DNA of 64,000 bases from Candidatus Woesebacteria bacterium GW2011_GWB1_39_10. Its GTDB lineage: Bacteria; Patescibacteriota; Microgenomatia; UBA8517. Under the pieces are notes generated by a model. The model had not been told where the DNA came from. It was given only the letters and a program-made list of their open reading frames with translations, and searched no databases. The DNA lies in the NCBI GenBank assembly GCA_000993205.1, contig LBVU01000002.1, forward strand, positions 28,250 to 92,249. Reading direction: 5' to 3'. Positions within the stretch are counted from its first letter, which is position 1. Each line of letters starts with the position of its first letter. A program made the translations under genes and the position numbers. Shown here one piece after another: positions 1 through 26,761 of this stretch.

Positions 1-1463
1 AGTTAATTAATGAGTTTTCCAAGAAGGGGCAGAGTCTTACTCTCTATAAATCTGGTGATTTTTCTGATCTTTGCCGAGGAGGGCATGTAGTCCACCCAAA
101 TCAAGAGATTGCACATTTCAAATTATTGTCCATCGCCGGCGCCTATTGGAGAGGCAATGAGAAGAATAAAATGCTTACGCGCATTTATGCCACGTGTTTT
201 CCGACAAAAGAAAAGCTGGAAAAATATCTTTTTCAACAAGATGAAGCTAAAAAGAGAGATCACAGAAAATTAGGCAAGGAAATGGGTTTGTTTACAATTA
301 ATGATCAGGTTGGACAAGGTCTTACCATTTGGTTACCAAATGGTTCAACCATAAGACGCGAGATAGAAAACTTCATGGTCGCCGAACAAGAAAAGCTTGG
401 TTACAAGCACGTTTATAGTCCCCACATTGGCCAAAAATCGCTTTGGGAAAAAAGCGGACACTGGGCCCTTTATAGAGAAAAAATGTATTCACCAATGGAT
501 GTTGATGGAACGGAGTATCTTGTTAAACCAATGACATGCCCAATGCACATTCAAACATATCAATTTAAATCAAGATCTTACAGGGAGCTACCGCTAAAAA
601 TTGCCGAAATAGCATCTGTTTACAGATACGAAAAATCAGGAGAACTGAATGGACTTCTGAGAGTTCGGGCATTTACTCAGGATGATGCGCATATTTTTTG
701 CACACCTGAACAGGCAGTTGATGAATTCATTTCGGTCTTTAAATTAATTCAGAAAATATATATGACTTTTGGGTTTACTGATTACAAAGTTCGTCTTGGA
801 GTTAGATCAAAGAAAGAAAAATACCTTGGAAACGATTCTCTATGGAAAGGGGCTGAAAAGAAGGCAGTTGAGGCATTAAAGAAAGTTGGATCTGACTACT
901 TTGTATCTGAGGGCGATGCCGCCTTTTATGGTCCCAAGGCTGATTTTCTAATTAAGGATGCATTAGGACGTGAATGGCAATGTGGTACCGTTCAAGTTGA
1001 TTTCATGTTACCCGAACGATTCGGCCTCAAATATATTGACCAAGATGGTAAAGAGAAAACACCTGTTATGGTTCATAGGGCACCACTGGGTTCAATCGAA
1101 AGATTCTTGGCGATTCTTATTGAAAATTATGCCGGTAATTTTCCAACTTGGCTAACACCAGTTCAGGTAAAAATTTTGCCAATTTCTGAAAAACATCTTG
1201 GTTATGCAAGGACAGTCCTTGCTAGGCTCAAAGAAAGCGGAATTCGCGTTGAACTTGACGACAGAAACGAGAGATTGCAGGCAAAAATCCGCGATTCCCA
1301 AATGGAGAAAGTTGCCTATATGTTAATTGTGGGAGACAAAGAAATGGAAAACGATTTAGTTGCACCAAGAAGTAGAACCGGTAAAAATTTTGGTACTCAG
1401 AAATTGGATAAATTTGTCAGAAATATTTTAGATGAGATTAAAAACAAAAAATCTGAAGTGTAA
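1..1463 (+). CDS. thrS: Threonyl-tRNA synthetase, 5'-truncated by the window edge (frame is open from nt 3).
   Basis: The upstream in-frame translation reads ...DLCRGGHVVHPNQEIAHFKLLSIAGAYWRG, which matches the ThrRS catalytic core. The C-terminal anticodon-binding region is present. Confidence 0.9.
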   Translation, partial: LINEFSKKGQSLTLYKSGDFSDLCRGGHVVHPNQEIAHFKLLSIAGAYWRGNEKNKMLTRIYATCFPTKEKLEKYLFQQDEAKKRDHRKLGKEMGLFTINDQVGQGLTIWLPNGSTIRREIENFMVAEQEKLGYKHVYSPHIGQKSLWEKSGHWALYREKMYSPMDVDGTEYLVKPMTCPMHIQTYQFKSRSYRELPLKIAEIASVYRYEKSGELNGLLRVRAFTQDDAHIFCTPEQAVDEFISVFKLIQKIYMTFGFTDYKVRLGVRSKKEKYLGNDSLWKGAEKKAVEALKKVGSDYFVSEGDAAFYGPKADFLIKDALGREWQCGTVQVDFMLPERFGLKYIDQDGKEKTPVMVHRAPLGSIERFLAILIENYAGNFPTWLTPVQVKILPISEKHLGYARTVLARLKESGIRVELDDRNERLQAKIRDSQMEKVAYMLIVGDKEMENDLVAPRSRTGKNFGTQKLDKFVRNILDEIKNKKSEV

Positions 1464-1568
1464 CAACCCCCAAGGTTCTTCAAAAATGGATGGGAAAGGA
1501 AAAGATTGAAATTAAGTAAGTTTGACAGAAACTGAAGTCGGCCGTAAACTACATCATAATCAAAATAT

Positions 1569-3020
1569 ATGGCAACTTTTGGAGCGGAAATTGAGAAACC
1601 TATATCAGATATAGCTTCTGGTTTACCTCGTGGAATTTCTCAAAAATCATTTACAAGAATTTCAGCAAGTTATAAGAATGGAGAACTGGACTACAGCGAC
1701 ATCCAACCCGAAACGGCAATTGCAGTAAACGCACCAGAGATTGGGCACATAGGTCTAGATAATGGTTTTAATCTCCAAGAAACTTCTACACGTGTTACCA
1801 GGAACTTGGGAGAACTTGAGGCCATCTTAAAAACCGATTTAAAGACCTTACAAAATGTTTTAGCTGAAGAAGGAGCGACTGTTATAAATCTTTCGATTCA
1901 TCCCTTGGGAAAAACTGATTCAGCTACTCATAAAGTTTTTGTTGCGCCAAAAGGTGTTTATAAATATATTGCTCTGAGAGGTTGGGATCACGCTGCAGGA
2001 ATTGACGCTAAAGCACAGAATAGTCCATCAACTGGTGTCGAGCCACAAAACGCAGCAAAAGCTCTCACCGCAGTAATTGGCGCCTCCGCAGCAATGATAG
2101 GACTTTTTGCAAACAGCCCATTCGAGGAAGGTCAAGTAAGCCCATTTAAGGAGACTAGATTAAAAATGTGGGATAGGTTTATGAAAAATTCTACATCGGA
2201 AGGTGATAGGTTAACTGCTAAATTTCCCGAAAAACCATTCTTTACACTAAAAGATTATTTTACTTGGATGTTTGGTCCCGGAACTAATATGCATTTTGTA
2301 ATAGCTTCGGGTGGAAACTACAAAACATTCGGGGATGCAGCAATTATAATTAACGACAATCCATCTGTTTTGAGTTATTTATCAATGGGAAAAGCAGAAG
2401 GGAAATTCTTAAATTCAGGCCAAAAAATTACTATTATACCAGACCTAAAACATATGGAGGCGCTTCAATTTGCACAATTTACCAGTGCAAGAATTAGATG
2501 GCATTTTGATTCATTAAAGGTGAATAAACAGGAATTCCTTAATGCATATAAGAATGATTCTCTTGAGGAATTGTTTACAAACGGCTCGGTTTCTGACATT
2601 TACATTGAAGGTAGAGACCCGGGAGCAAATTTTCCTGATACACATCTAAACTCACTTGGTAATGAATTATCCTGGTCAACTATTATGGCGCCAAGCGCAA
2701 TTCAATCAGGAATAATTAACAATTTAGACGAGGCGCTTCAATATCTCAGAACTTTTAAGTGGCAACATCTTAATCTTTTGAGAGAAGCCGCAATTAAGGA
2801 CGGGTTGCACGGTGAGGTGGGTGGTGTAAAGGTTTTTGAGTTCACAAAAAAAGTTCTTGAAATTTCAGCAAAGGGACTTCCTGTAGGGCAACAAAAATTA
2901 CTAGCGTATCCTGTCCATGTCTTACAAACAAAACAAAACGGAGCGGATAGAGCGCTTGTAGATTATTCCAAAGGAAAATCAATTAAGGATATTGTAAAAT
3001 CAAGAAATGTCTCCGTCTAG
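1569..3020 (+). CDS. Carboxylate-amine ligase of the glutamate-cysteine ligase (GCS/GshA)-like family.
   Basis: The 483-aa protein carries GAEIE near its N-terminus and IHPLG motifs that resemble GCS2/GshA-type ligases. The assignment rests on remembered motifs only. Confidence 0.35.
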   Translation: MATFGAEIEKPISDIASGLPRGISQKSFTRISASYKNGELDYSDIQPETAIAVNAPEIGHIGLDNGFNLQETSTRVTRNLGELEAILKTDLKTLQNVLAEEGATVINLSIHPLGKTDSATHKVFVAPKGVYKYIALRGWDHAAGIDAKAQNSPSTGVEPQNAAKALTAVIGASAAMIGLFANSPFEEGQVSPFKETRLKMWDRFMKNSTSEGDRLTAKFPEKPFFTLKDYFTWMFGPGTNMHFVIASGGNYKTFGDAAIIINDNPSVLSYLSMGKAEGKFLNSGQKITIIPDLKHMEALQFAQFTSARIRWHFDSLKVNKQEFLNAYKNDSLEELFTNGSVSDIYIEGRDPGANFPDTHLNSLGNELSWSTIMAPSAIQSGIINNLDEALQYLRTFKWQHLNLLREAAIKDGLHGEVGGVKVFEFTKKVLEISAKGLPVGQQKLLAYPVHVLQTKQNGADRALVDYSKGKSIKDIVKSRNVSV

Positions 3021-4143
3021 CAAACCTATCGTCATTAAAAAAATAGAAGTAAGACTTTTACGATTGCCTTTAATTACGACCTTCACAACGGGATTTGGAA
3101 CAATCAATTACAAAGAAACAGTTGTGGTCAGGCTTGAAGATTCCGACGGAGTAGTTGGTTGGGGTGAAGGGGCTGCTTTATCTTTTCCGAATTACTCCCC
3201 CGAAACTGCCATTACAACATATTTAGGACTTAAAGAATATTTATTACCATCGATTGTCGGAAAGCGTATTTCTGGTCCTGAAGGTCTCGATAATTTATAT
3301 TCACAAGTAAAAGGTTACCATTTTGCCAAAACAGCAATTGACTGTGCGATGTGGATGATTTGTTCAATCAAGTCCCAACAATCATTGAAACAGCTTCTTG
3401 GAGGAAAAAGTGAGAGTGTCGCTATTGGCGAAAGTATCGGAATTAAAAATTCCATCGATGAAACTTTGGAAGAAATTTCATTAAGACTGGACCAGGGATA
3501 TCAAAGAATAAAAATTAAAATTAAACCTGGCTGGGATGTCGAGCTCGTTAGAAAAGTTAGAGCAAAATTTAGTGACATTCCCTTGATGGTGGATGCCAAC
3601 TCTTCTTATTCATTAAATGATGTTCCCATATTTAAAAAACTTGATAAATTTAACTTAATGATGATTGAACAACCGTTAGGTGATACCGATATTGTTGACC
3701 ACTCGTTTTTGCAAAAAGAAATTACAACCCCTATTTGCCTTGATGAAAGCATTCTGTCAGTGGAGGATGCCAGGAAGGCTATAAAAATAGGGGCATGTAA
3801 AATAATAAATATTAAGCCCGGACGTGTTGGCGGGATTTCAGAATCTAAAAAAATCCACGATTTTTGCCAAGATAATAATATCGGCGTATGGTGCGGTGGA
3901 CTATTAGAAACTGGGATCGGTCGCGCCTTTAATATCGCACTTTCTTCCCTTCCGGGTTTTAAATATCCTGCAGACATGTCTCCGAGTTCGTTTTTTTATA
4001 AAGAAGACTTAATCGATCCAACATACGAAGTGGATAAAAACGGATATATTGCAATACCAACAGCTACAGGTCTTGGCTACAATCTTGAAATGAAACGTAT
4101 TAATAAATATACAAAACAAAAATACAATACAAGGGCATATTGA
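3007..4143 (+). CDS. Enolase-superfamily MR/MLE enzyme, likely an o-succinylbenzoate synthase / N-succinylamino-acid racemase / dipeptide epimerase.
   Basis: It has the KIKIKPG K-x-K catalytic motif, the MVDANSSY metal-ligand region and a length typical of OSBS/NSAR. It overlaps the upstream ligase gene by 14 nt. Confidence 0.65.
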   Translation: MSPSSKPIVIKKIEVRLLRLPLITTFTTGFGTINYKETVVVRLEDSDGVVGWGEGAALSFPNYSPETAITTYLGLKEYLLPSIVGKRISGPEGLDNLYSQVKGYHFAKTAIDCAMWMICSIKSQQSLKQLLGGKSESVAIGESIGIKNSIDETLEEISLRLDQGYQRIKIKIKPGWDVELVRKVRAKFSDIPLMVDANSSYSLNDVPIFKKLDKFNLMMIEQPLGDTDIVDHSFLQKEITTPICLDESILSVEDARKAIKIGACKIINIKPGRVGGISESKKIHDFCQDNNIGVWCGGLLETGIGRAFNIALSSLPGFKYPADMSPSSFFYKEDLIDPTYEVDKNGYIAIPTATGLGYNLEMKRINKYTKQKYNTRAY

Positions 4144-4178
4144 CATTAAAATTTATTTTTGTTAGTCTCCTCTAAACA

Positions 4179-5390
4179 ATGAATGCTGAAAATAAAAAGA
4201 GTGAGGGTTATGTAGCCACTGGTTTGCCAGTTGAATATAGAGGAGAATATGGGCAAATTATAGACTTAGGTCTTGCAGCAAATCCCAGTGGCGCAGCATT
4301 CGATGCTAAGAAATTAGCCGATCTAACTTCTACAAAACAAATCGCAGAATATGATGAAGATGTCCACCATTCGGACATTAAAGACCTGTTAATCGAAGGA
4401 ATTGGTCTTAAAAATATAGGAAACGAATCCGTCATTTTTCATCCAAACGGCAGTTACGGAGCGGGTGATGAGGTTATAAGGGCTTTATCAAACCATTCTC
4501 ACCAACAAGGAAAAACGTTAACGGTTTATGTTCCAACTTATTCTTTTCCGAATGTTGAACAATATGCCGCGCGTAATAATGCCAGGTATGTACCGGTAAT
4601 TTCCGATAAGTCGTTTTTGCAAAGCGATTCTCTTAATGCCGTTCTAGACATGAAAAGTAATCAGTTATCGGGAAATGTTGTTTATGTTGACTATCCAAAT
4701 AACCCCTCAGGCGTTGCGAACAAAGATCTTTTACGAAAAGTTGTAAACCATGTAAGTTTCCACGGAGGAATACCTTTTGTTGATTTGGCGTTTGGTGAAG
4801 TTTTAGGCGATGAATTTAAAGACGGTATTCAATATACGATAGATCGTGGAGGTGTGTGCGTGGGTTCATTAACCAAAACACAGGGCCTGGCTGCTCTACG
4901 TGCAGGTTATATTCTTATGAACCCGGGATTGTCTAAAAACCTATATAGTAAAGGCGAAAAACTTGTATTTGGTCTTCCAGCCCATGTTAAAAATGCCTAC
5001 ACATTGTTGTTCACGGGTTCTGAAGGAAAAACTCTCGCTAGGGCACAAGCTCTTAAGGCGATTAATTATAATCACCAGACAAATAGCAAACTTTATGAAG
5101 CTTTAACAAATTTAGGTCTAAAAATAGCGCCTACTATTTACGAAACCCCCGTGCAAATCGTGGCAAATGCCAACGACGACCTCTTCACCAGGCTTGCATG
5201 TGTAGGAATTAAAAGCGAAAGTTTGAACGAGTATTCTAATACTTTGGGCAAAGAGGCCTCAAAAGGATATGGAAACCAAGCTGTTAGAATATTGACCCCA
5301 AGAGTGGGAATGCTTGAAGAAACAATTAAAAGATTTCGTGTTGCAATGCAATTAACAGACAACCATATTCAATCAAAGGCCAAGAAATAA
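4179..5390 (+). CDS. PLP-dependent class I/II aminotransferase.
   Basis: It carries the YVDYPNNPSGV motif (the NPxNPTG-like aminotransferase signature), is 403 aa long, and has a likely PLP-lysine region around SLTKTQG. Confidence 0.6.
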   Translation: MNAENKKSEGYVATGLPVEYRGEYGQIIDLGLAANPSGAAFDAKKLADLTSTKQIAEYDEDVHHSDIKDLLIEGIGLKNIGNESVIFHPNGSYGAGDEVIRALSNHSHQQGKTLTVYVPTYSFPNVEQYAARNNARYVPVISDKSFLQSDSLNAVLDMKSNQLSGNVVYVDYPNNPSGVANKDLLRKVVNHVSFHGGIPFVDLAFGEVLGDEFKDGIQYTIDRGGVCVGSLTKTQGLAALRAGYILMNPGLSKNLYSKGEKLVFGLPAHVKNAYTLLFTGSEGKTLARAQALKAINYNHQTNSKLYEALTNLGLKIAPTIYETPVQIVANANDDLFTRLACVGIKSESLNEYSNTLGKEASKGYGNQAVRILTPRVGMLEETIKRFRVAMQLTDNHIQSKAKK

Positions 5391-5395
5391 ACACC

Positions 5396-6472
5396 ATGGA
5401 GAGAAAATATTTTAAAGAAAAATTAACTGAACTTGTAGCCATCCCGACTATCAGAGAAAAAGAGATGCTAAAAGAAAGTTCCGAAGCTTTAGATCTCATA
5501 GAAAGTTGGGCCGACTCCGCATTGTCAAAAAGGCGTATTAAAAATGGAAAAACTGAAATTTTACTTTTAGGAAACGGAAATTTACTAAACCCAGATATCG
5601 GTTATTTAGCACACGTGGATGTAGTCGATGCCGACAAAGAAATGTTTAAAATGACCGAGACTGATGGAAAATTTTATGGACGAGGAGTAAGCGATATGAA
5701 ATTTTCGATACCTATTGGAATTGAAATACTAAACAAATTAGCCAAAGATAAAGGCGCTCCAGTTATGACTCTCGCCATAACAACAGACGAGGAAGTCGGA
5801 GGCGGGGATGGAGGAAATTATTTAGCAAATGAAATTAAATTTATTCCTGAAGTTCTTATAGTACCGGACGGAGGAGATGATTTTGTTTTTGTTAATAAAT
5901 CTAAAGGTAAGGCAACTCACGCCTCAACTCCTTGGCTTGGAAAAAATGCATTAACGCCATTAATCAAAATAGCAAGTGGGCTGGGCGCGATATATGATCA
6001 GAATTCTGCATCACCCAATTGGGAAACCACGATGAATTTGGGAGTACTCCAAGGTGGCAAATCGACCAATCAGGTTTGTGACGAAGCTACTCTCAAATTG
6101 GATTTTAGATTTCCCGAGACCAGAAGTGCTAACGAAATATTGGAAGAGGTAAGAAAAGCTTCTGAAAAAATTGATCCCAATCTTTCCATTAAACTTGGTG
6201 CCCAAGGTGACCCAATATATACAGACATAAAAAATCTTGAAGTGACAAGATTTTTAAAAATAGCTAGAGATGTTCTCGGCAGAAATATAAAAATTGAAGG
6301 AGAAAACGGAGCATCTGACGCTAGATACTGGGCCAAGTATAATATTCCTATAATAATGAAGCCGAATGGAGGAGGTATACATAGTGACAAAGAGTGGATC
6401 GATGTTGAATCTTGTCTAACGTATTATGAAATATTATCAAAGTATGTAAACGAATTCACTAGTATAATTTGA
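5396..6472 (+). CDS. M20 family metallopeptidase / deacylase (ArgE/DapE-like).
   Basis: It has the M20 metal-ligand motifs HVDVV, GRGVSDMK and TTDEEVGG. A paralogue sits at 12196..13356. Confidence 0.7.
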   Translation: MERKYFKEKLTELVAIPTIREKEMLKESSEALDLIESWADSALSKRRIKNGKTEILLLGNGNLLNPDIGYLAHVDVVDADKEMFKMTETDGKFYGRGVSDMKFSIPIGIEILNKLAKDKGAPVMTLAITTDEEVGGGDGGNYLANEIKFIPEVLIVPDGGDDFVFVNKSKGKATHASTPWLGKNALTPLIKIASGLGAIYDQNSASPNWETTMNLGVLQGGKSTNQVCDEATLKLDFRFPETRSANEILEEVRKASEKIDPNLSIKLGAQGDPIYTDIKNLEVTRFLKIARDVLGRNIKIEGENGASDARYWAKYNIPIIMKPNGGGIHSDKEWIDVESCLTYYEILSKYVNEFTSII

Positions 6473-6595: not shown

Positions 6596-8113
6596 ATGGA
6601 AAGATTTTTACCTGCAAACAAAGATAAAGAACAAGCTCGAGTTTTGCAATATTTTATTGACCCTCAAAATCCCAACATGCAGTATAAACAATTTGCGAGA
6701 AACTTGACGTCAATGTTTTTGGGAGCAAACCCTTCAGCTGAACAACAAAAAATCGCCAGACAACTCATGGGGATTTTTGATGAAGTAAAAGACGCAAGAC
6801 AATTTAATGAAACATATATCGGACACATGCTGTCTGAGGCATCAATTCCTGGAATGTGGGGTTATATGCTTGCTACAAGACTTGGGAGCAATACCGTAGC
6901 CCGTGAAGTTTCTGAATTGGAATCAAGACTGGAACCGGAAGCTATTCGAGGATTGATGAAAATGGTTGGCTATGACCAAAACGAAGCAAGTGGAACTTTT
7001 ACTTCGGGAGGCTCAATTGCAGTTTTTACTGCAATTGATGTTGCAGTCAAAAGAATAAAAAGACAATTCGACGAGGCGGAAAAACAAATAGACAAACCAT
7101 TGGTAATTTTATACAACAAATTTGCCCATTATAGTTTTCATAAAGCTGTAGATGCCTTGGGCGGGCCAGCTAGAATGATCGAAAAAATGGAGGTAGAATC
7201 TCCCGGTTTCAGAATGAATCCTCGCGATCTTGAAAAAAAGATCGAACAGAGTTTGAAAGAAGGCAAGATCGTCGCAGCCGTGTTTGCTATTGCCGGGGAA
7301 ACAGAAACCGGAATCGTCGATGATCTAACCCAAATATCAAAGATATCAAAAAAACATGGCATTTTTACTATTGCCGACGGAGCTTACGGAGCACCATACA
7401 GATTGTCTCGCAAAAGTTCACTTTTCAAATCCTTAAACGAATATGATGCAATCACTATCGATGGCCACAAGGCACTTTACACACCCTATTCAAATGGGGC
7501 AGTACTTTTTAAAGATAAACACAACCACGTTCTTCTAAATCTGGGGGTCAAAGCGCCATACGTTAAGTTTGAAGAAAAAGAAGAGGCAATTTTAAGAAAT
7601 TTATCTTATAAAAATCTCGGGTTTAGTCTTGGAGAAAAAAGATTCGAAGGATCAGGTGGAGCTGGGTCAATCCTTTCAACTGTAGCAGTATTGAGAACTC
7701 TAGGGCTTGAAGGGCTGACCACCGTCTACGACATCACGCTAGATAGAATCGAATATTTGAATGACAGATTGAATCGTTCTAAAATACTAATGCCCATACA
7801 TGAACCAGATGTAAATTTGCAGTGCTTTAGAATTAGACCAGATGTTGAACACTTGTTCGGTGTAAACGATAACAGTCGAAGATCAGATATTGTTGAAAAA
7901 AGTAGAATCGATGATGTAGATAAAGGGTTGAGAGGCAAAGGCGGGTTTTTCTTCTCTTCAACAGATTTTGATCTTCCCAATTATTATGGAAAAATTGAGC
8001 AAACTGCGGTTTGGAGAGCTTGTCTTATGAATCCAAGAACTTCTAACAAAATATTGGACCAGGCCGTAGCCGAACTTGAAAGTTCAGTTCTTAAAAGATT
8101 AGGGTCAAAATAG
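6596..8113 (+). CDS. PLP-dependent group II amino-acid decarboxylase.
   Basis: It has the TSGGSIAV motif and DGHKALYTPY (the S-x-HK PLP-lysine motif), and its 505 aa fit the GAD/MfnA/TyrDC family. Confidence 0.65.
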   Translation: MERFLPANKDKEQARVLQYFIDPQNPNMQYKQFARNLTSMFLGANPSAEQQKIARQLMGIFDEVKDARQFNETYIGHMLSEASIPGMWGYMLATRLGSNTVAREVSELESRLEPEAIRGLMKMVGYDQNEASGTFTSGGSIAVFTAIDVAVKRIKRQFDEAEKQIDKPLVILYNKFAHYSFHKAVDALGGPARMIEKMEVESPGFRMNPRDLEKKIEQSLKEGKIVAAVFAIAGETETGIVDDLTQISKISKKHGIFTIADGAYGAPYRLSRKSSLFKSLNEYDAITIDGHKALYTPYSNGAVLFKDKHNHVLLNLGVKAPYVKFEEKEEAILRNLSYKNLGFSLGEKRFEGSGGAGSILSTVAVLRTLGLEGLTTVYDITLDRIEYLNDRLNRSKILMPIHEPDVNLQCFRIRPDVEHLFGVNDNSRRSDIVEKSRIDDVDKGLRGKGGFFFSSTDFDLPNYYGKIEQTAVWRACLMNPRTSNKILDQAVAELESSVLKRLGSK

Positions 8114-8463: not shown

Positions 8464-9074
8464 TTTGCCGGAACGATAATTGGCAAAACTCTCACATCAC
8501 TATTGCTAGTTTTTCCCGGTCTATAGGCCACCAATGGTAAACCATTAAAAGACCTACCTACATACAAATAATTTTCACCAGGACCAATTGTTGTGGTGGA
8601 TGCGTTATCGTAGCTTCCGGCTCTTCTAAAAAAACTCATATTTGTTTTTGAGGTGTAACCACAATCAAGGTCTAAGTAATCCAACGCCGTCCCAATAATT
8701 GCTTTTACACCAGGAATGATCTGAGAAAGTGACTGGCTGTATTTCTTCGTCATTTCCTGTTGCCCCTGAAGCGTCAAACCACCCGAACCGGGAAGAAATA
8801 AATCATCAACATTAATAGCGACCTCTGACGCTTTACATCGCTCATTTTCAATTTCAAGTCCATTGTGCCAATTAGACCAAAAACCTACACCATTCATTTT
8901 CAATGATGCAACTGATTCGCCTCTGAGCTCGAAAATTTGAAAACCTCGCTTTTCTAATTCAATTCGTTGTTCGGAAGAAAACCTTGTAATTGCAAATACC
9001 TCCCGGCCTGATAAAATATCCTTCATGTTGATACTATAACATGGCATGTCAATCTGGGAAAACAATATAGTCAT
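8454..9074 (-). CDS. Hypothetical protein.
   Basis: A 206-aa ORF with no recognisable motifs. It is divergent from the 9046..9456 ORF. Confidence 0.4.
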   Translation of the reverse strand: MTILFSQIDMPCYSINMKDILSGREVFAITRFSSEQRIELEKRGFQIFELRGESVASLKMNGVGFWSNWHNGLEIENERCKASEVAINVDDLFLPGSGGLTLQGQQEMTKKYSQSLSQIIPGVKAIIGTALDYLDLDCGYTSKTNMSFFRRAGSYDNASTTTIGPGENYLYVGRSFNGLPLVAYRPGKTSNSDVRVLPIIVPANYI

Positions 9075-9456
9075 GGAACGTCACAGTGAGGGAAAAAGGA
9101 TTATCACAAGATTAAACAGCAACCAAAATCTTATCGAGATTGGTGAACCTGGCAACTGTCGAATATGGACAACTTTGGCATTTAAAATAGTCCGATCAGC
9201 GTTTCCAAACACACAACTCGAAGCCAGAGAAGTGGATATTTCCGAATACCTACAACACACTTTTTTAAAAATCACACCTATCAATGAAGAGCCTCTTTTG
9301 TGTGATGGACTGGGGCAGAAAAACATCCTCCTTTTTTTTGATTACGAATCCGAAGCTCCAAAACATCTTCAAAATAGTCGCATGGATATACTTAACAGTT
9401 ATTTAAAATTTGACAACTCCAAATTCCGTGATAATATACATTTGTTAACATCGTAA
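9046..9456 (+). CDS. Hypothetical protein; the alternative start is at 9073.
   Basis: A 136-aa ORF with no recognisable motifs. Confidence 0.3.
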   Translation: MSIWENNIVMERHSEGKRIITRLNSNQNLIEIGEPGNCRIWTTLAFKIVRSAFPNTQLEAREVDISEYLQHTFLKITPINEEPLLCDGLGQKNILLFFDYESEAPKHLQNSRMDILNSYLKFDNSKFRDNIHLLTS

Positions 9457-9465
9457 AAGCTGTGA

Positions 9466-9781
9466 AGCAGTGAAGTAGTTAAGTTGAGTGGTAAATAGAG
9501 ACGAGGCGGTTGGTGCAAGACCTCGCAAGCTCAAATTAATGAATTACCCTGCAGAGCCGGTTCGACAAAATCGAGCCCGGGAGTGCCCGTAAACGCACTA
9601 GAGTCTGTTGGAAATCAAAGGACTTGAATAATGAGGGTTATCTCATAATTTCTAGTCCCGCGGAGCCTAAAGGCGAAGTGGGATTTTTTGTTGAGATAAC
9701 TAAAGAAGGGTGGTAACGCCTTTAAAGGGCCCCTTCAGTTTCTGAGATTTTGTCTCGGGAATTGGAGGGGCTTTTTTGTTT
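9466..9781 (+). promoter_or_regulatory. Candidate T-box riboswitch leader: Stem I with specifier loop, stem IIA/B-like pseudoknot, stem III, T-box sequence, antiterminator/terminator.
   Basis: Stem I pairs GCAG 9467-70 with CUGC 9549-52, UUGAG 9484-88 with CUCAA 9530-34, and CGAGG/CCUCG at the apex. The internal loop has AGUA on the 5' side and GAA on the 3' side. An AGAGA element lies at 9497-9501. An F-box-like CCGUAAA lies at 9587-93 inside a pseudoknot-capable CGGG AGUGC CCG UAAAC GCACU. Stem III pairs GUUAUCUC 9637-44 with GAGAUAAC 9693-9700. The T-box-like sequence AGAAGGGUGGUAACGCC at 9704-9720 forms an antiterminator (AAGGG/CCCUU with a 7-nt UGGUAAC bulge). That antiterminator is mutually exclusive with the terminator GCCCCUUC 9729-36 / GGAGGGGC 9764-71 plus U6 9772-77. 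SD GGGGGTG and the ATG at 9803 follow. Confidence 0.5.
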
Positions 9782-9802
9782 TCCCAAAAGGGGGTGATAA
9801 AC

Positions 9803-10876
9803 ATGAATAAAGAAATATTACGCGAACAATTGATAAATCTTGAGACGCGAAATGCCGGAATGAAAATTCTTAACCCGGGAGACTTAACGTCCGAAAAAAC
9901 TGCAGACAATGTCATTAAGTTATTAAAAGCGATGTATGTTGAACATGGTATTACCAAAGATAAGAAAAAACTAGTAAAGGATATTGAAGTCGGAAACGTT
10001 TTAAGTTGGTTTGCCCAAAAAGACGAAAATTTTGTCGCAACAGCTTCTCTTGTAAAACAAGACGATGGCGCTTGGGAGCTCGGTAGAGCAGTATCGCTTG
10101 ATCGCGGCAATGGACTAGGCAAAAGGGTAATTCTTGAAGCCTTAAAATTTCATCTAAAAAATCATTCTAATGAGGCGTTAATTGCTGAAGTTCGCGCCGC
10201 AGACGAATTCAAGCAAGTTCCGTCCGGACTTGCAACTCAAAAGATATTTTTTGGTACTATCAACTCGATTTTGCCAATTACACCCTTTGCAATTGCTCCG
10301 TTATTTGCGCACGGGGATCCACTAAGAAATGAGCAATTTATTCTTTCGGCAAGTGATATAAAGCCGGGAAAAACTATCAGTGAAAAAATTTCTGACTCTA
10401 TTAACAATAGGTCAACCAAGGGAACTATTCCAAGGTTACAGGTGATACAAACTGCTCCTTTTCGTCTGGCGATTCCTAATGATAACGGAAAAAAAGCTAG
10501 TCAAGTAGCATCAGAGTCCGTTGATTTTAAAGGTTGCTCACTATTTCCGGTAGAAGTTACAGACCGAAACATGCCGTTAATTGGTATGTTGTCTTCGAGA
10601 TCTGACATGGTTTTGTGTGGAGTTGACCGTCTATTGGGTAATGAAGGGAAACCGGTAGTATTAATCGCCACATTAGGTTTCCACGGCAATATTTTGACTG
10701 GTCAGTCATCAGAGTTGGCGCCCACTGAAGTTTCTGAAGTGCTTCCGACTGAAATGCGGAAAGACACACAAGCAATTGCTGATAAATTTTCGCATATACG
10801 CGAAGCGCAACTAAACGAGTTTAGAGATGGACTGCACCCTTATTTCCGTACAGACATAATTAAGTTATCACTTTAA
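9803..10876 (+). CDS. Hypothetical protein with a GNAT-like motif; its last ~14 codons are encoded by the left end of the IS3-family element.
   Basis: SD GGGGGTG lies 6 nt upstream of ATG 9803; the ORF track extends to 9776. The N-terminal region carries RGNGLGKRVILEAL, which resembles GNAT motif A. Coding runs into the IS left inverted repeat (10833..). Confidence 0.5.
   Translation: MNKEILREQLINLETRNAGMKILNPGDLTSEKTADNVIKLLKAMYVEHGITKDKKKLVKDIEVGNVLSWFAQKDENFVATASLVKQDDGAWELGRAVSLDRGNGLGKRVILEALKFHLKNHSNEALIAEVRAADEFKQVPSGLATQKIFFGTINSILPITPFAIAPLFAHGDPLRNEQFILSASDIKPGKTISEKISDSINNRSTKGTIPRLQVIQTAPFRLAIPNDNGKKASQVASESVDFKGCSLFPVEVTDRNMPLIGMLSSRSDMVLCGVDRLLGNEGKPVVLIATLGFHGNILTGQSSELAPTEVSEVLPTEMRKDTQAIADKFSHIREAQLNEFRDGLHPYFRTDIIKLSL
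10833..10861 (+). repeat. IS3 left terminal inverted repeat (IRL).
   Basis: It begins TG and includes the 10-nt core CGTACAGACA, which recurs inverted at 12081-12090. Confidence 0.55.
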
Positions 10877-10916
10877 ACTATCGGTTAAACTGTAGCCAGA
10901 AAGGAGGTGAAAAATT

Positions 10917-11234
10917 ATGTCAGGTACTAAACGAAAATTTACCAGAGAATTTAAACTTCAGGTTGTCACTGAAATTGAATCAGGGACTAAGACCAGAGCT
11001 CAAATTACTCGTGAATATGAATTATCAGAGGGACTAGTTACTAAGTGGGTTGCGGTCTATCGAGCTAATCCTCAAACTGCCTTTACAGGTAGACTGGTAG
11101 CCAGTGAGGAGGAAAGACTAAAAATTAAAATTAAAGAGCTTGAGTGGGCATTGGGTAGAAAGACAATGGAGGTGGAAACCCTGAAATTTACACTGGAAGG
11201 ATTAAATGTTAAAAAAGGGGGCTTTATGAAGTAG
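10917..11234 (+). CDS. IS3-family transposase OrfA (HTH DNA-binding).
   Basis: The sequence FTREFKLQVVTEIESGTKTRAQITREYELSEGLVTKWV followed by a leucine-zipper-like LKIKIKELEWAL is a classic IS3/IS911 OrfA. RBS AAGGAGGTG. Confidence 0.85.
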   Translation: MSGTKRKFTREFKLQVVTEIESGTKTRAQITREYELSEGLVTKWVAVYRANPQTAFTGRLVASEEERLKIKIKELEWALGRKTMEVETLKFTLEGLNVKKGGFMK

Positions 11235-12097
11235 CAGAAACATTTTGTCAAAAAGGACAATCTATTACAGATTTGTGTAGAACCCTACATGTCTCAAGGA
11301 GCGGGTATTATGAATATCTGAAAAACAAAAATCTTAAAAATATGGATGAAGAATTAGTTAAAAACCAAATTGAACAAATTGCCCTGGAATATCCAAGATA
11401 TGGATACAGAAGGATTACTGAGGAACTTAAAAGAAGAGATTTTATAGTTAATCACAAAAGGGTCCTAAAACTGATGCAAGAAGAAGATTTACTTTGCAAA
11501 CACAAAAAGAAGTTTATGGTTACAACTGATTCTAACCATCCACTTCCAATTTACCCAAACTTAATTAAAGGAATGATTGTGACTAGGATTAACCAAATCT
11601 GGGTGGCAGACATTACTTATATCCCCCTGACCACTGGCAAATTTGTATTTTTAGCAGTAGTACTGGATCTTTATTCAAGAAAAGTAGTTGGTTGGCATTT
11701 AGGAAGTGACTTATCATCCATTTTAGTTTGTCATGCCCTGCAGATGGCAATACTCAGCCGAAAACCACCTGCAGGGCTAACTCATCATTCAGACCGTGGA
11801 GTTCAATATGCCAGTTATGAGTATACAAATATTTTAAAACTAAATAATATTCAAATTTCTATGAGTAGAAAGGGTAATCCATATGACAATGCAGTTTGTG
11901 AAAGTTTTAACAAAACATTCAAATGGGATGAGGTTAGGCTAAATAAATACAACAATTATTTTGAAGCTAAAGAAGCCATTGCAAACTATATTGAGCAGAT
12001 TTACAATGCAAAAAGGTTACATTCAAGCCTAAACTACAGGCCACCGAATGAATTTGAAGAGAGTTTAATTAACAGTCAATTGTCTGTACGTTATTAG
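11213..12097 (+). CDS. IS3-family transposase OrfB (DDE integrase core), probably expressed as an OrfAB fusion by -1 frameshifting.
   Basis: The -1 frame opens at 11213, directly over AAAAAAG (11211-17). The rve-type motifs are LCRTLHVSRSGYY, HSDRGVQYAS and GNPYDNAVCESFN. Confidence 0.85.
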   Translation, partial: KRGLYEVAETFCQKGQSITDLCRTLHVSRSGYYEYLKNKNLKNMDEELVKNQIEQIALEYPRYGYRRITEELKRRDFIVNHKRVLKLMQEEDLLCKHKKKFMVTTDSNHPLPIYPNLIKGMIVTRINQIWVADITYIPLTTGKFVFLAVVLDLYSRKVVGWHLGSDLSSILVCHALQMAILSRKPPAGLTHHSDRGVQYASYEYTNILKLNNIQISMSRKGNPYDNAVCESFNKTFKWDEVRLNKYNNYFEAKEAIANYIEQIYNAKRLHSSLNYRPPNEFEESLINSQLSVRY

Positions 12098-12104
12098 GGG
12101 TTCA
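12075..12104 (+). repeat. IS3 right terminal inverted repeat (IRR); it overlaps the orfB C-terminus.
   Basis: The reverse complement TGAACCCCTAATAACGTACAGACAATTG matches IRL at about 19 of 24 positions and ends ...TTCA. Confidence 0.55.
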
Positions 12105-12195
12105 CTCCAAGAAAATGGCACAGAGGTTTTGGGAAATTGAGATGAATTGGTCAAAACAAGATGAGAGGTGGAAAGGCTAATACTTTGCATCTCTT

Positions 12196-13356
12196 ATGGC
12201 ACAAGGGATGCGTAGCCTGTCGGTAAGTGATAGAATCGGAATGGTAAAGATATATAAACTTATGAAAAAAGAAGAATTTATTAGTCAGATTGCAAAACTT
12301 GTTTCCTTTGAAACTGTTACCGGTAACGTAGCAGAAAACTCAGAGGCCTTGAGTTATGTGGAATCCTTAATAAGCAAGGACGCGGAAGTAAAAAGAATCA
12401 AGAATAAAGACGCCGAAATTTTAATTGCCGGTAATTCCAACATAATGACGCCGGATGTTGGATATATGGTGCACATGGACGTAGTTGCTGGCAAACCTGA
12501 ACAATTTAAGGTCTCCATAAAAGCAGATAAAATATTCGGTCGGGGTACCAGCGACATGAAGTTTTCTATTCCAATCGGAATCTCTCTTTTGAATCAGCTT
12601 ATTGCCACTAAATCAAAAATTACTTTTTCTTTAGCTATTACAACAGATGAAGAAATTGGAGGATTTGCAGGTGGAGCGTTTCTTGCAGAAAAACTTAAAT
12701 TCAGACCGAAAGTTTTAATCGTTCCGGATGGCGGAGATAATTTAACATTTGTAAACAAAGCCAAAGGAGTTTGCCAATTGGTTATTACCGCTAAAGGCTC
12801 CCCAGCCCACGCCAGCAGGCCATGGGTGGGTAGAAACGCCCTGGACATGCTTTCTACACTTTCTGTGGAGCTTTTGAAAATTTACGGCAAAAACAATATC
12901 AAAGAAAATTGGAATACGACCATGAATACGGGCCAAATTCAGGGTGGAATTTCTATCAACCAGGTCTGCCCAGTTGCAGTAATGAAAGTTGATTTCAGAT
13001 ATCCCGAAACTGACAGCATAGAAAAGATTACGAAAACTGTTTCCGGTATTGCCGCCAAAATCAGCAATAACATAACCATAGAAAAGGCCTCAACCGGTTT
13101 GCCCACTTTTACAAATACCGATTTGTTTGTTGTCAAGGATTTCCTAAAGACAATGGAAAAAGCATACGGCAAAAAGATCGTAGTTACACACACATACGGA
13201 GCTTCCGATGCCCGCCATTTTGCCAAATTTAATGTTCCTGTTTTAATGATGAAACCTATGGGTGGCGAGATCCACTCAGAAACAGAATGGGTAAGTATTT
13301 CTTCTTCATTGAAATTTTACGATGGACTGTTAGAATTCATATATGGACAAAATTGA
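12196..13356 (+). CDS. M20 family metallopeptidase / deacylase, a paralogue of 5396..6472.
   Basis: It has HMDVV, GRGTSDMKFSIPIGI and TTDEEIGG motifs and aligns along its whole length with the 5396 gene. Confidence 0.7.
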   Translation: MAQGMRSLSVSDRIGMVKIYKLMKKEEFISQIAKLVSFETVTGNVAENSEALSYVESLISKDAEVKRIKNKDAEILIAGNSNIMTPDVGYMVHMDVVAGKPEQFKVSIKADKIFGRGTSDMKFSIPIGISLLNQLIATKSKITFSLAITTDEEIGGFAGGAFLAEKLKFRPKVLIVPDGGDNLTFVNKAKGVCQLVITAKGSPAHASRPWVGRNALDMLSTLSVELLKIYGKNNIKENWNTTMNTGQIQGGISINQVCPVAVMKVDFRYPETDSIEKITKTVSGIAAKISNNITIEKASTGLPTFTNTDLFVVKDFLKTMEKAYGKKIVVTHTYGASDARHFAKFNVPVLMMKPMGGEIHSETEWVSISSSLKFYDGLLEFIYGQN

Positions 13357-14509
13357 GGAAGTATTAACACGTGGTGTTGCAGAAATATTGCCGACCAAAG
13401 AAGGTTTGGCAAAACTGATGTCAGAAAAGAAAATAACGCTATATCAAGGATTCGATCCGACAGGCGCTCAACTTCACATTGGCCACGCAGTCGGCTTTAG
13501 GAAACTCGCGCAATTTCAGGCGCTTGGACACAAGGTAATCTTCCTCATTGGAGATTTTACCGGAATGATAGGGGACCCTTCCGGAAAATCGACTGAAAGA
13601 AAAGTTTTAACTAGGGAAGAGGTTTTGGAAAATGCTAAAACTTATAAAGAGCAGGCAGGTAGAATATTAAAATTCGATGGGGAAAATCCTGTCGAAATTA
13701 AATATAACAGTGAATGGCTGGGGAAAATGAGTGCAATTGAATTCTTACAACTTTCTCACAATTTGACATACACCCAAGTTGTTGAACGGGATATGTTCCA
13801 GGAACGTCTTAAAAAGAGACAGGATGTTTACATGAATGAATTTCTTTATCCTTTTATGCAAGCTTATGATTCGGTTGCGATGAATGTGGATTTGGAAATC
13901 GGTGGACAAGACCAGAAGTTTAACATGTTGATGGGCAGAAAATTAATGCGAAATATCTTACATAAAGAAAAATATGTAATGACACTTCCACTTCTGACAG
14001 ACTCAAAAGGAAATAAAATTGGTAAGACTGAGGGTAATGTAATTGGTTTAACAGATTCTGCAAAAGAATTTTATGCAAAAATAATGTCGCTTTCGGACAA
14101 CTCGATTGTAAACTGTTTTACAATCTTAACCGACAAATCTATTGGGGAAATAAAACAAATAGAGAAAGATATTGCGAAAGGCAAGAATCCTTTTGAATTT
14201 AAAAAACAATTAGCTTTTGATTTAACCAAGTGGTTAAATTCTGAAAAAGACGCTAAAGAAGCTCAGGCAAATTTTGAAAAGACTTTTCAGGAGAGGGCGC
14301 CAGAATTTAACATTAAAGTTAATGCGGGAGAGTCTCTAATCAAAACCATCATTCCTTTTACCAACAGACAAAGCGTAAGCGCCGCTAAGGAGTTGATTAA
14401 ACAGGGAGCGGTGGACATTAACGGACAAAAAGTTACTGATGGATCAACTACGCTTAAAACCGGTGATGAAATAAAGGTCGGAGGCCGGACCTTTCTCAAG
14501 GTAAAGTAA
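13343..14509 (+). CDS. tyrS: Tyrosyl-tRNA synthetase.
   Basis: It has the HIGH motif (LHIGHAVG) and a KMSKS-like motif (KIGKTEG) on a class I Rossmann fold with a C-terminal S4-like domain. It is 388 aa. Confidence 0.9.
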   Translation: MDKIEEVLTRGVAEILPTKEGLAKLMSEKKITLYQGFDPTGAQLHIGHAVGFRKLAQFQALGHKVIFLIGDFTGMIGDPSGKSTERKVLTREEVLENAKTYKEQAGRILKFDGENPVEIKYNSEWLGKMSAIEFLQLSHNLTYTQVVERDMFQERLKKRQDVYMNEFLYPFMQAYDSVAMNVDLEIGGQDQKFNMLMGRKLMRNILHKEKYVMTLPLLTDSKGNKIGKTEGNVIGLTDSAKEFYAKIMSLSDNSIVNCFTILTDKSIGEIKQIEKDIAKGKNPFEFKKQLAFDLTKWLNSEKDAKEAQANFEKTFQERAPEFNIKVNAGESLIKTIIPFTNRQSVSAAKELIKQGAVDINGQKVTDGSTTLKTGDEIKVGGRTFLKVK

Positions 14510-26176: not shown

Positions 26177-26761
26177 ATGGTTAACTCAAGAACTGGCACA
26201 TATGATTCTCTAGAAGAACTTGCTAGACAAGTTATATCTTTAACTGGTGAAGATCCAAACAGAGAAGGATTGAAAGAAACACCAAAAAGGGTAGCAAAGA
26301 CTTATAAAGAGCTATTGAGTGGGTATGAAATGGACCCAAGCCATGAAATTACAATGTTTGACAGTAATGGTTTCAATGAATTGGTTAGTGTAACCGAGAT
26401 TGACTTCTACAGCTTATGCGAACACCACATGCTTCCATTTTTTGGTAAAGTACATATAGGTTATGTACCAGACAAGAAGATTTTGGGTTTATCCAAATTT
26501 TCTAGAATTGTAGATATATATTCAAGAAGGCTTCAGACTCAAGAGAATCTAACAAAACAAATATTTGATTTGTTAGAAAATAAACTTTCTCCAAAGGGAT
26601 TGATCGTTTCTATTGAAGCAAGACATTTATGTGTACGGATGAGGGGTGTAAAAGAAAAGGGAAGTTCAACAAAAACTACAATTAAAAACGGTATATTATT
26701 AAAAAGACGTGATTTTGCCGATCAATTCTTCATAGATTCTCATTTAAAAGTTATTTCTTGA
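26177..26761 (+). CDS. folE: GTP cyclohydrolase I.
   Basis: It has the CEHHMLPF motif and the HIGYVP/SRRLQTQENLT region. Confidence 0.9.
   Translation: MVNSRTGTYDSLEELARQVISLTGEDPNREGLKETPKRVAKTYKELLSGYEMDPSHEITMFDSNGFNELVSVTEIDFYSLCEHHMLPFFGKVHIGYVPDKKILGLSKFSRIVDIYSRRLQTQENLTKQIFDLLENKLSPKGLIVSIEARHLCVRMRGVKEKGSSTKTTIKNGILLKRRDFADQFFIDSHLKVIS

Follow-up and report, generated by a model that had tools for sequence, protein, structure and literature searches.

The tyrS leader of Bacillus subtilis is the prototype of the class I T-box riboswitches (Rfam family RF00230), in which an S-turn specifier loop, an AGAGA element, a distal platform, Stem II, Stems IIA/B and Stem III precede a UGGN bulge, a mutually exclusive antiterminator and terminator, and a U-run. 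All of these parts recur in a leader RNA at positions 9453-9782 of a 64,000-nucleotide stretch of contig LBVU01000002.1 of Candidatus Woesebacteria bacterium GW2011_GWB1_39_10 (the window; all positions refer to its forward strand). The leader very probably is a transcriptional (class I) T-box riboswitch specific for tRNA-Tyr that heads an ancestral operon X-M20-tyrS, which has been split in this genome by an insertion sequence (IS) of the IS3 family. The UAC codon and tyrS as the regulated synthetase gene are those of the founding example, and the class membership and mechanism are known ones; new are the host lineage, the pyrimidine after the specifier, a module in Stem III, and two genes co-regulated with tyrS.

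The prototype belongs to the Firmicutes, and in a comparative survey T-boxes were abundant only in that group (PMC2494555), whereas the leader described here places a complete, covariation-supported T-box in a genome of the Woesebacteria (Candidate Phyla Radiation, CPR; Patescibacteria). A full-text literature search with T-box/riboswitch terms combined with 'Candidate Phyla Radiation' or 'Patescibacteria' found no paper. An earlier note on this DNA, made from the letters alone, had judged the genome CPR-like; in agreement, the product of gene X shares 100% identity with a hypothetical protein of Candidatus Woesebacteria GW2011_GWA2_40_7 (Patescibacteria/Microgenomates group). Other departures from the class are a pyrimidine in place of the usual purine after the specifier, and a Stem III that is about 70 nt longer and carries a terminator-like hairpin followed by U6; in comparison with B. 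subtilis tyrS, two genes without assigned function, X and M20, precede the synthetase gene. For the Stem III module, two described systems are closest. Stem Sa of the staphylococcal glyS T-box (PMC9177973) is likewise a clade-restricted extra module in an otherwise canonical T-box, and programmed pauses are described for the glyQS T-box (PMC13001445); the hairpin and U-tract of the present leader lie just before the discriminator, where pausing is known to aid tRNA capture. The insertion here lies in Stem III and not in the antiterminator/terminator domain, and its role in pausing or termination is putative. The main value of the locus lies in a functional lead on X and M20 and in a possible pause element.

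Structure of the leader and its alternative folds

The RF00230 model matched the plus strand at 9453-9737 with 94.4 bits (gathering score 93; E 2.1e-19), was aligned end to end (model positions 1-219 of 219), and gave the sole above-threshold Rfam match in the window. The AGUA/GAA specifier loop, AGAGA, the distal loop GGUUGGUG, Stem II, Stem IIA (CGGG...CCCGUAA) with the F-box, and the T-box sequence AGGGUGGUAACGCC are visible in the Rfam alignment; the coordinates of all features are collected in Table 1. The folding energy of the leader (338 nt) is -125.7 kcal/mol, with z = -6.05 against dinucleotide shuffles; this is structure far beyond chance. The canonical T-box architecture that the earlier note had proposed was confirmed, with all of its listed elements located in the sequence; it had let the leader start at 9466, and the leader is real but its true 5' end lies about 13 nt farther upstream. 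Neither of the two outcomes named in the note as speaking against a T-box, i.e. an Rfam score below threshold and homologous leaders without compensatory changes, was found. A promoter-like site, a consensus match only, is located 16 nt upstream of the Rfam match.

Relatives of X were collected from 21 loci (42-72% X identity), and an RF00230 match was present directly 5' of X in every scanned locus having upstream DNA; the leader-bearing loci scanned were L001, L002, L004-L007, L010-L015, L017, L019 and L020, and E-values of the homologous leaders were 3e-6 to 4e-18. The leaders were aligned over their whole length with MAFFT (alignment A3), which is blind to structure, and counts on A3 were restricted to helices that are in register. 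Since A3 is out of register in a divergent subgroup for the variable middle of Stem I (as well as for IIIb and antiterminator helix A1), Stem I was counted on a second alignment (A6), for which a covariance model was built from 6 leaders and used to align 13. On A6, 95.7% of the Stem I cells are paired and both partners vary in 20 of 23 pairs, whereas partners slid by 1-3 columns pair in 27-38% of cells; the covariation score is 0.82 vs 0.20 in shuffles, with 0 of 500 shuffles as high. For Stem II, IIA, IIB and IIIa, counted on A3, 94% of cells are paired vs 22-43% when slid, and compensatory change is seen in 14 of 21 pairs: both sides change in six of the seven pairs of Stem II and in six of the eight pairs of IIIa (94.8% paired), and IIB is 100% paired with the variants GUG:CAC, GCG:CGC and GUC:GAC.

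The alternatives of antiterminator and terminator are also conserved among the leaders. RNA ending before the 3' arm of the terminator folds into a canonical antiterminator in the window and in most relatives (exceptions, L005 and L014), and full-length RNA folds, in all 12 leaders folded, into a much stabler terminator that consumes the 3' strands of the antiterminator; in the window, the energies are -45.2 kcal/mol for the terminator vs -12.4 kcal/mol for the antiterminator, and the two overlap from the start of the terminator 5' arm at 9724 to the end of the antiterminator 3' strands at 9735. The terminator was found independently by a pattern scan (at least 20 bp at 9727-9773, then T6GT4). 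The bulge is UGGU in 12 of 13 leaders and UUGU in L011. The UGGU bulge, the mutually exclusive hairpins and the U-run claimed in the earlier note are therefore all present. A translational T-box was considered and rejected, because the terminator has a U-run and the Shine-Dalgarno sequence (9788-9797) lies outside the switching helices.

In the proposed mechanism, transcription would probably start just 3' of the promoter-like site at 9410-9437, and Stem I would bind tRNA-Tyr through pairing of UAC (9545-9547) with the GUA anticodon and through a contact of the distal platform. The 3' ACCA of uncharged tRNA would pair with UGGU (9711-9714) and stabilise the antiterminator (9706-9735), and RNA polymerase would then read through into the operon; with charged tRNA, the far stabler terminator (9724-9774) would form with its U-run, and transcription would stop.

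Table 1. Features of the T-box leader and of the interrupted operon in the window
Feature	Position	Strand	Remarks
Promoter-like site TTGACA-16-TG-n-TAATAT (extended -10)	9410-9437	+	Pattern scan, 10/12 matches + TG
Stem I (binding domain for tRNA anticodon and elbow; GA/K-turn-like base)	9459-9557	+	Rfam alignment
S-turn of specifier loop	AGUA 9474-9477, GAA 9541-9543	+	
AGAGA bulge	9497-9501	+	
Stem I distal loop GGCGGUUGGUGCAAGACC	9505-9522	+	
Specifier codon UAC (Tyr), then C9548	9545-9547	+	Rfam specifier position
Stem II	9559-9577	+	7 bp, CAAAA loop
Stem IIA (CGGG/CCCG)	9578-9589	+	Includes F-box-like CCCGUAA
IIB pseudoknot	within 9578-9599	+	Loop AGUG pairs with CACU 9596-9599
Hairpin IIIa	9601-9625	+	
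Extended Stem III (IIIb)	9635-9701	+	9635-9645 pairs with 9692-9701; minimum-free-energy fold
T1, G+C-rich hairpin at tip of IIIb	9656-9683, then U6 9684-9689	+	Terminator/pause-like look
T-box sequence AGAAGGGUGGUAACGCC	9704-9720 (UGGU 9711-9714)	+	
Antiterminator	9706-9735	+	Helix A1 AAGGG/CCCUU, 7-nt bulge UGGUAAC, helix A2 GCCUU/AGGGC
Intrinsic terminator hairpin, ~25 bp	9724-9774	+	5' arm = antiterminator 3' half
U6GU4 tract after terminator	9772-9782	+	
Shine-Dalgarno sequence	9788-9797	+	ATG of gene X at 9803
Gene X	9803-10876	+	N-terminal GNAT domain, C-terminal weakly GNAT-like domain
IS3-family element	10828-12109	+	orfA 10917-11234, orfB 11273-12097; operon orientation
Displaced original X 3' end, KMAQRFWEIEMNWSKQDERWKG*	12112-12180	+	Translation matches homologue C-termini (P0003, P0005)
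M20-family ArgE/DapE-like deacylase, ancestral operon gene 2	12196-13356	+	Pfam Peptidase_M20, M20_dimer
tyrS, tyrosine--tRNA ligase, ancestral operon gene 3	13343-14509	+	TIGR00234

Tyrosine specifier and the tyrS operon

The specifier of the leader is that for tyrosine, because UAC is invariant and in register in the 13 leaders, always 1 nt before the lower helix, because it stands at the specifier position of Rfam, and because it goes together with a UGGU bulge, which predicts an A73 discriminator, with a neighbouring tRNA-Tyr gene and with TyrRS in the operon. On its 3' side, the specifier loop has the sequence GAAUUAC(C/U) in 11 leaders; L004 has GAAAUUUACU and L019 has GAAUUUACU instead. 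A tRNA-Tyr(GUA) gene adjoins the leader in L013 and L014, about 480 nt upstream, and that of L013 has A73, matching the bulge.

The earlier note had left the codon ambiguous between UAC, ACC and AUU; the latter two fail in the comparison of leaders, and it is highly improbable that the leader senses tRNA-Thr (ACC/ACU) or tRNA-Ile (AUU) rather than tRNA-Tyr. All three codons are contained in GAAUUACC, the C/U variation sits at the third position of the synonymous Thr codons ACC and ACU, the AUU reading gives the usual purine (A) after the codon, and thrS (126-1463) is present in the window in addition to tyrS, as the note had stated. However, AUU overlaps the GAA of the S-turn and shifts its register in L004 (GAAAUUUAC) and L019 (GAAUUUAC), where the distance of UAC from the helix stays at 1 nt; an ACC/ACU codon would run directly into the helix without a spacer base; and thrS is located 8 kb upstream, outside the unit of the leader. 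The Ile and Thr specifiers were thus rejected for overlap and register shift and for the lack of a spacer, respectively.

As an observation apart, the tRNA-Tyr(GUA) genes of L013 (4165-4238) and L014 (866-937) are just 72-74 nt long, and that of L013, with a 5-nt variable loop, G1-C72 and A73, reaches no more than 37 bits with the tRNA model of Rfam. A long variable arm is the norm for tRNA-Tyr in bacteria.

Searches by tblastn with the window proteins placed X, M20 and tyrS, in this order, behind the T-box, with recG as the usual next gene. The order X-M20-tyrS was found in at least 15 loci (including L001-L010, L015 and L018-L021), with short or overlapping junctions, and in nearly all related loci the gene after X is M20; L024 and L026, which represent a distant branch of the X family (P0049-like), likewise have X-M20-tyrS, and L022 of that branch has X-M20. 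In the window, tyrS is matched by TIGR00234 with 347 bits (cut-off, 113.8) and by Pfam tRNA-synt_1b and S4, and M20 is matched above threshold by Pfam Peptidase_M20 (75.5 bits) and M20_dimer (56.8 bits); NCBIfam matches of M20 to ArgE/DapE subfamilies are all under the curated/equivalog cut-offs.

In the window, the gap of 1.3 kb between X and M20-tyrS is accounted for by the IS3 element, which is inserted within the 3' end of X and has HTH_Tnp_1 (orfA) and rve (orfB) domains, terminal inverted repeats of 29 nt (79%; TGGACTGCACC... and ...GGGGTTCACTCCA, i.e. TGGACTG.../...CACTCCA), and AGA on both flanks (regions 10820-10827 and 12110-12180 read). With orfA/orfB, a size of about 1.28 kb, inverted repeats TG...CA and a 3-bp flanking repeat, the element resembles the IS3 family without notable difference. 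The last 16 codons of the current X reading frame (357 aa), from 10828, are derived from the IS. When the IS and one AGA are removed, the old tail of X is 1 nt out of frame, reflecting either a later indel or an assembly error in an A-run. The ancestral unit is X (tandem GNAT-like), an M20 ArgE/DapE-like deacylase and tyrS; at present, the leader is directly followed by a C-terminally altered X and then the IS, with M20-tyrS 1.3 kb on in the same orientation. Since relatives keep X-M20-tyrS and the IS accounts for the gap, the leader is read from the gene order as a tyrS-operon leader, a classical T-box target, with the operon split in this genome. The earlier note had seen in it a T-box with a non-synthetase target; a GNAT-domain gene does come next, but in relatives the leader heads the tyrS operon.

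A T-box dedicated to the GNAT-like X, with tyrS nearby by coincidence or separately expressed, appears improbable. In its favour, X is the only intact-looking gene between leader and IS in the window, the leader of L013 precedes X-M20 with no tyrS downstream, L022 of the distant branch has X-M20 without tyrS, and the promoter-like site at 13309-13336 lies just ahead of tyrS; against it, X, M20 and tyrS in the great majority of loci form a contiguous same-strand series with tight spacing or overlaps, the T-box upstream of X is the sole one per locus, and the gap in the window is fully explained by the insertion.

Another reading, which we consider unlikely though less so, is that the leader is a decaying relic in this genome, i.e. 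that the IS inactivated X and uncoupled tyrS, and that the output of the T-box is no longer useful. The IS does lie inside X and replaces its last ~20 codons, clean excision with the 3-bp duplication puts the old tail 1 nt out of frame, and a second, independent IS has entered the same operon in L020. However, the window leader has the top Rfam score among all leaders and intact helices, and the replaced part of X is a poorly conserved C-terminal helix past the last conserved columns. The IS also points in the direction of the operon, and a scan of the window between X and tyrS found no terminator-like site on the plus strand, so that readthrough into M20-tyrS across the IS is possible.

Several points weigh against the assignment of the leader as a tRNA-Tyr-specific T-box heading the tyrS operon. 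The Rfam score exceeds the gathering threshold by just 1.4 bits, and the homologous leaders all fall below it (43-88 bits); the covariation of Stem I comes from an alignment that had itself been fitted to the structure; and no tRNA gene was found within the 64 kb window. In all 13 leaders the specifier is followed on its 3' side by a pyrimidine (C in 8, U in 5); a purine pairing with U33 is normal at this position, as a conserved but not strictly defining feature (PMC2879506). Finally, after the insertion tyrS may use other promoters, and promoter-like sites are present at 11979-12007 and 13309-13336. The latter site (TTGAAA-16-TG-TAGAAT, 10/12 matches) is located within the 3' end of M20, 7 nt before the tyrS start, and could be an internal tyrS promoter.

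The transposase-like gene in L020 (322-1263, minus strand; 313 aa), which lies between the T-box terminator and X, represents an independent IS of another kind in the same operon of a second lineage; together with the IS3 element of the window it offers natural experiments in which synthetase and riboswitch are uncoupled. L011 (2020-5165) is rearranged, with M20 upstream of the leader, the UUGU bulge mentioned above, and an LMW-PTP/ArsC-like gene (3471-3995, CX5R motif) between X and tyrS; in L013, X-M20 are followed by a histidine-phosphatase-like gene, and tyrS is absent.

The Stem III module

In 11 of 13 leaders, including that of the window, IIIa and the T-box sequence are separated by an insertion of about 70-80 nt; the short-form leaders L013 and L014 are without this module, and IIIa is their only Stem III. 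Compensatory changes in IIIb were read from A3. A covariance model of IIIb and T1 was abandoned (T1 poorly aligned, spurious match at 26225) and T1 was tabulated per sequence instead: T1 and U5-6 are found in all 11 long-form leaders, with differing stem sequences and energies of -8.8 to -14.7 kcal/mol, and the end of the U-run stands 18-27 nt ahead of the T-box UGG in 10 of these leaders. Complementarity also exists between the 3' strand of IIIa and the segment just 5' of T1 (9617-9627 with 9646-9657 in the window), and it co-varies across subgroups (also in L001, L004, L005 and others); duplexes of cognate segments have a mean of -6.7 kcal/mol, vs -3.3 for non-cognate and -2.4 for shuffled ones, and the complementarity is weak in the window (-2.5 kcal/mol). 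It could represent an alternative or tertiary pairing.

During transcription T1 would resemble an intrinsic terminator or a hairpin pause, since its folding precedes synthesis of the 3' strand of IIIb, and by analogy with glyQS its most likely function is that of a pause element. A stronger version, which we regard as possible but doubtful, is a two-checkpoint attenuator in which T1 and U6 (9656-9689) would truly terminate transcription, or impose a strong programmed pause, ahead of the T-box decision, so that the leader would work differently from a standard T-box. This version draws on the retention of T1 and U5-6 in every long-form leader despite change of stem sequence, on its position 18-27 nt ahead of UGG in 10 of the 11, on the persistence of T1 in the distant L024 leader, on the co-varying complementarity with IIIa, and on the programmed pauses reported for the glyQS T-box, where they serve as kinetic checkpoints (PMC13001445). 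In the finished RNA, however, T1 is just the tip of a long Stem III, within which part of the U-run can pair; L013 and L014 keep every other T-box part without T1, lineage-specific T-box insertions are already known (PMC9177973), no alternative structure clearly disrupting T1 was found, and the T1 of the window is irregular and was missed by the terminator scan. As a pause element, the embedded hairpin with U6 offers a testable case for programmed pausing in T-boxes.

The L024 leader (4192-4450) keeps Stem I with GAAUUACCC, Stem II, IIA/B, IIIa, and IIIb with T1, and has two consecutive hairpin-U6 elements and no recognisable UGGN bulge.

Gene X, the M20 deacylase and neighbouring genes

The X family comprises 71 representatives among 1.84 billion clustered proteins (exhaustive profile search). 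For X, no Pfam family above threshold and no NCBIfam family were found, and its profile gave nothing significant against PDB sequences; the match to Pfam GNAT (PF00583) is below threshold (16.6 bits vs 20.7; E 0.0097). The best fold matches of the predicted structure are acyl-CoA N-acetyltransferases (NatA/Naa10, RimI, and the tabtoxin resistance protein TTR), which supports assignment of X to the GNAT fold. The pyrophosphate-binding motif of GNAT enzymes for acyl-CoA is Q/R-x-x-G-x-G/A. In X, the motif R-G-N-G-L-G-K occupies residues 101-107, with G102 nearly invariant and G106 invariant among 39 homologues. The GNAT-like N-terminal domain recognized in the earlier note is hence borne out by predicted fold and RxxGxG motif, and its suggestion of an aminoacyl-tRNA-using transferase found no support: the top structure matches include no FemX/FemA/Fem-type or leucyl/phenylalanyl (L/F)-transferase.

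With the Tyr specifier of the leader there is a functional handle on the two unannotated genes, X and M20. From their synteny and regulation it is suggested, with low confidence, that both act on tyrosine or a tyrosine derivative; in a plausible scheme, the deacylase would free tyrosine and X would modify a related amine. The linkage to tyrS persists across deep divergence, which makes X and M20 candidates for a part in tyrosine acquisition or quality control where biosynthesis is minimal. More speculative, and in our view rather doubtful, is the proposal that X and M20 are an unrecognised tyrosine-linked pair confined to the CPR/Patescibacteria and induced together with TyrRS by uncharged tRNA-Tyr, and that the leader is a T-box variant whose Stem III hairpin with U6 acts as a checkpoint, by pausing or termination, that must be passed before reading of the tRNA 3' end. 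If true, the pair might serve in tyrosine salvage from N-acyl-tyrosine or peptides, or in a pathway for the handling of D-tyrosine or Tyr-tRNA.

The M20 protein that follows X belongs to two subfamilies, with about 30% identity to the window M20 in L001/L004-type loci and 47-70% in L010, L011 and L013; the X-M20 pairing is kept despite the differing M20 type. In L022 (4244-4795) and L024 (4512-4994), a small P-loop kinase gene (AAA_33 weak, SKI faint) is located immediately upstream of X, which in L024 places it between leader and X. The TyrRS of L024 (7129-8982; 617 aa) has an N-terminal B3_4 domain (PheRS-beta editing-type), and a second tRNA-synt_1b gene is nearby. A gene for a pyridoxal-phosphate-dependent, tyrosine-decarboxylase-like decarboxylase recurs near X-M20(-tyrS) (window 6596-8113; L013:8594-9130; L022:1623-3209; L024:1025-2554); its matches to MfnA (tyrosine decarboxylase) and PanP are weak and all below cut-offs, and it may be part of this tyrosine-related gene neighbourhood.

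Upstream of the leader, the open reading frame (ORF) 9046-9456 was dropped as a part of the system, being conserved only in L013 and L014 and not in L001; no NCBIfam family was found for the two small upstream ORFs. On the same strand, the region 126-6472 encodes thrS, a GCS2-like carboxylate-amine ligase, an MR/MLE-family enzyme (Pfam MR_MLE_N, MR_MLE_C), a class I/II aminotransferase, and a second M20 deacylase. The thrS product aligns only from position 129 of TIGR00418, with its N-terminal part seemingly absent or the ORF start miscalled, and the second M20 deacylase (5396-6472) is 47% identical to the operon M20 of L010, L011 and L013.

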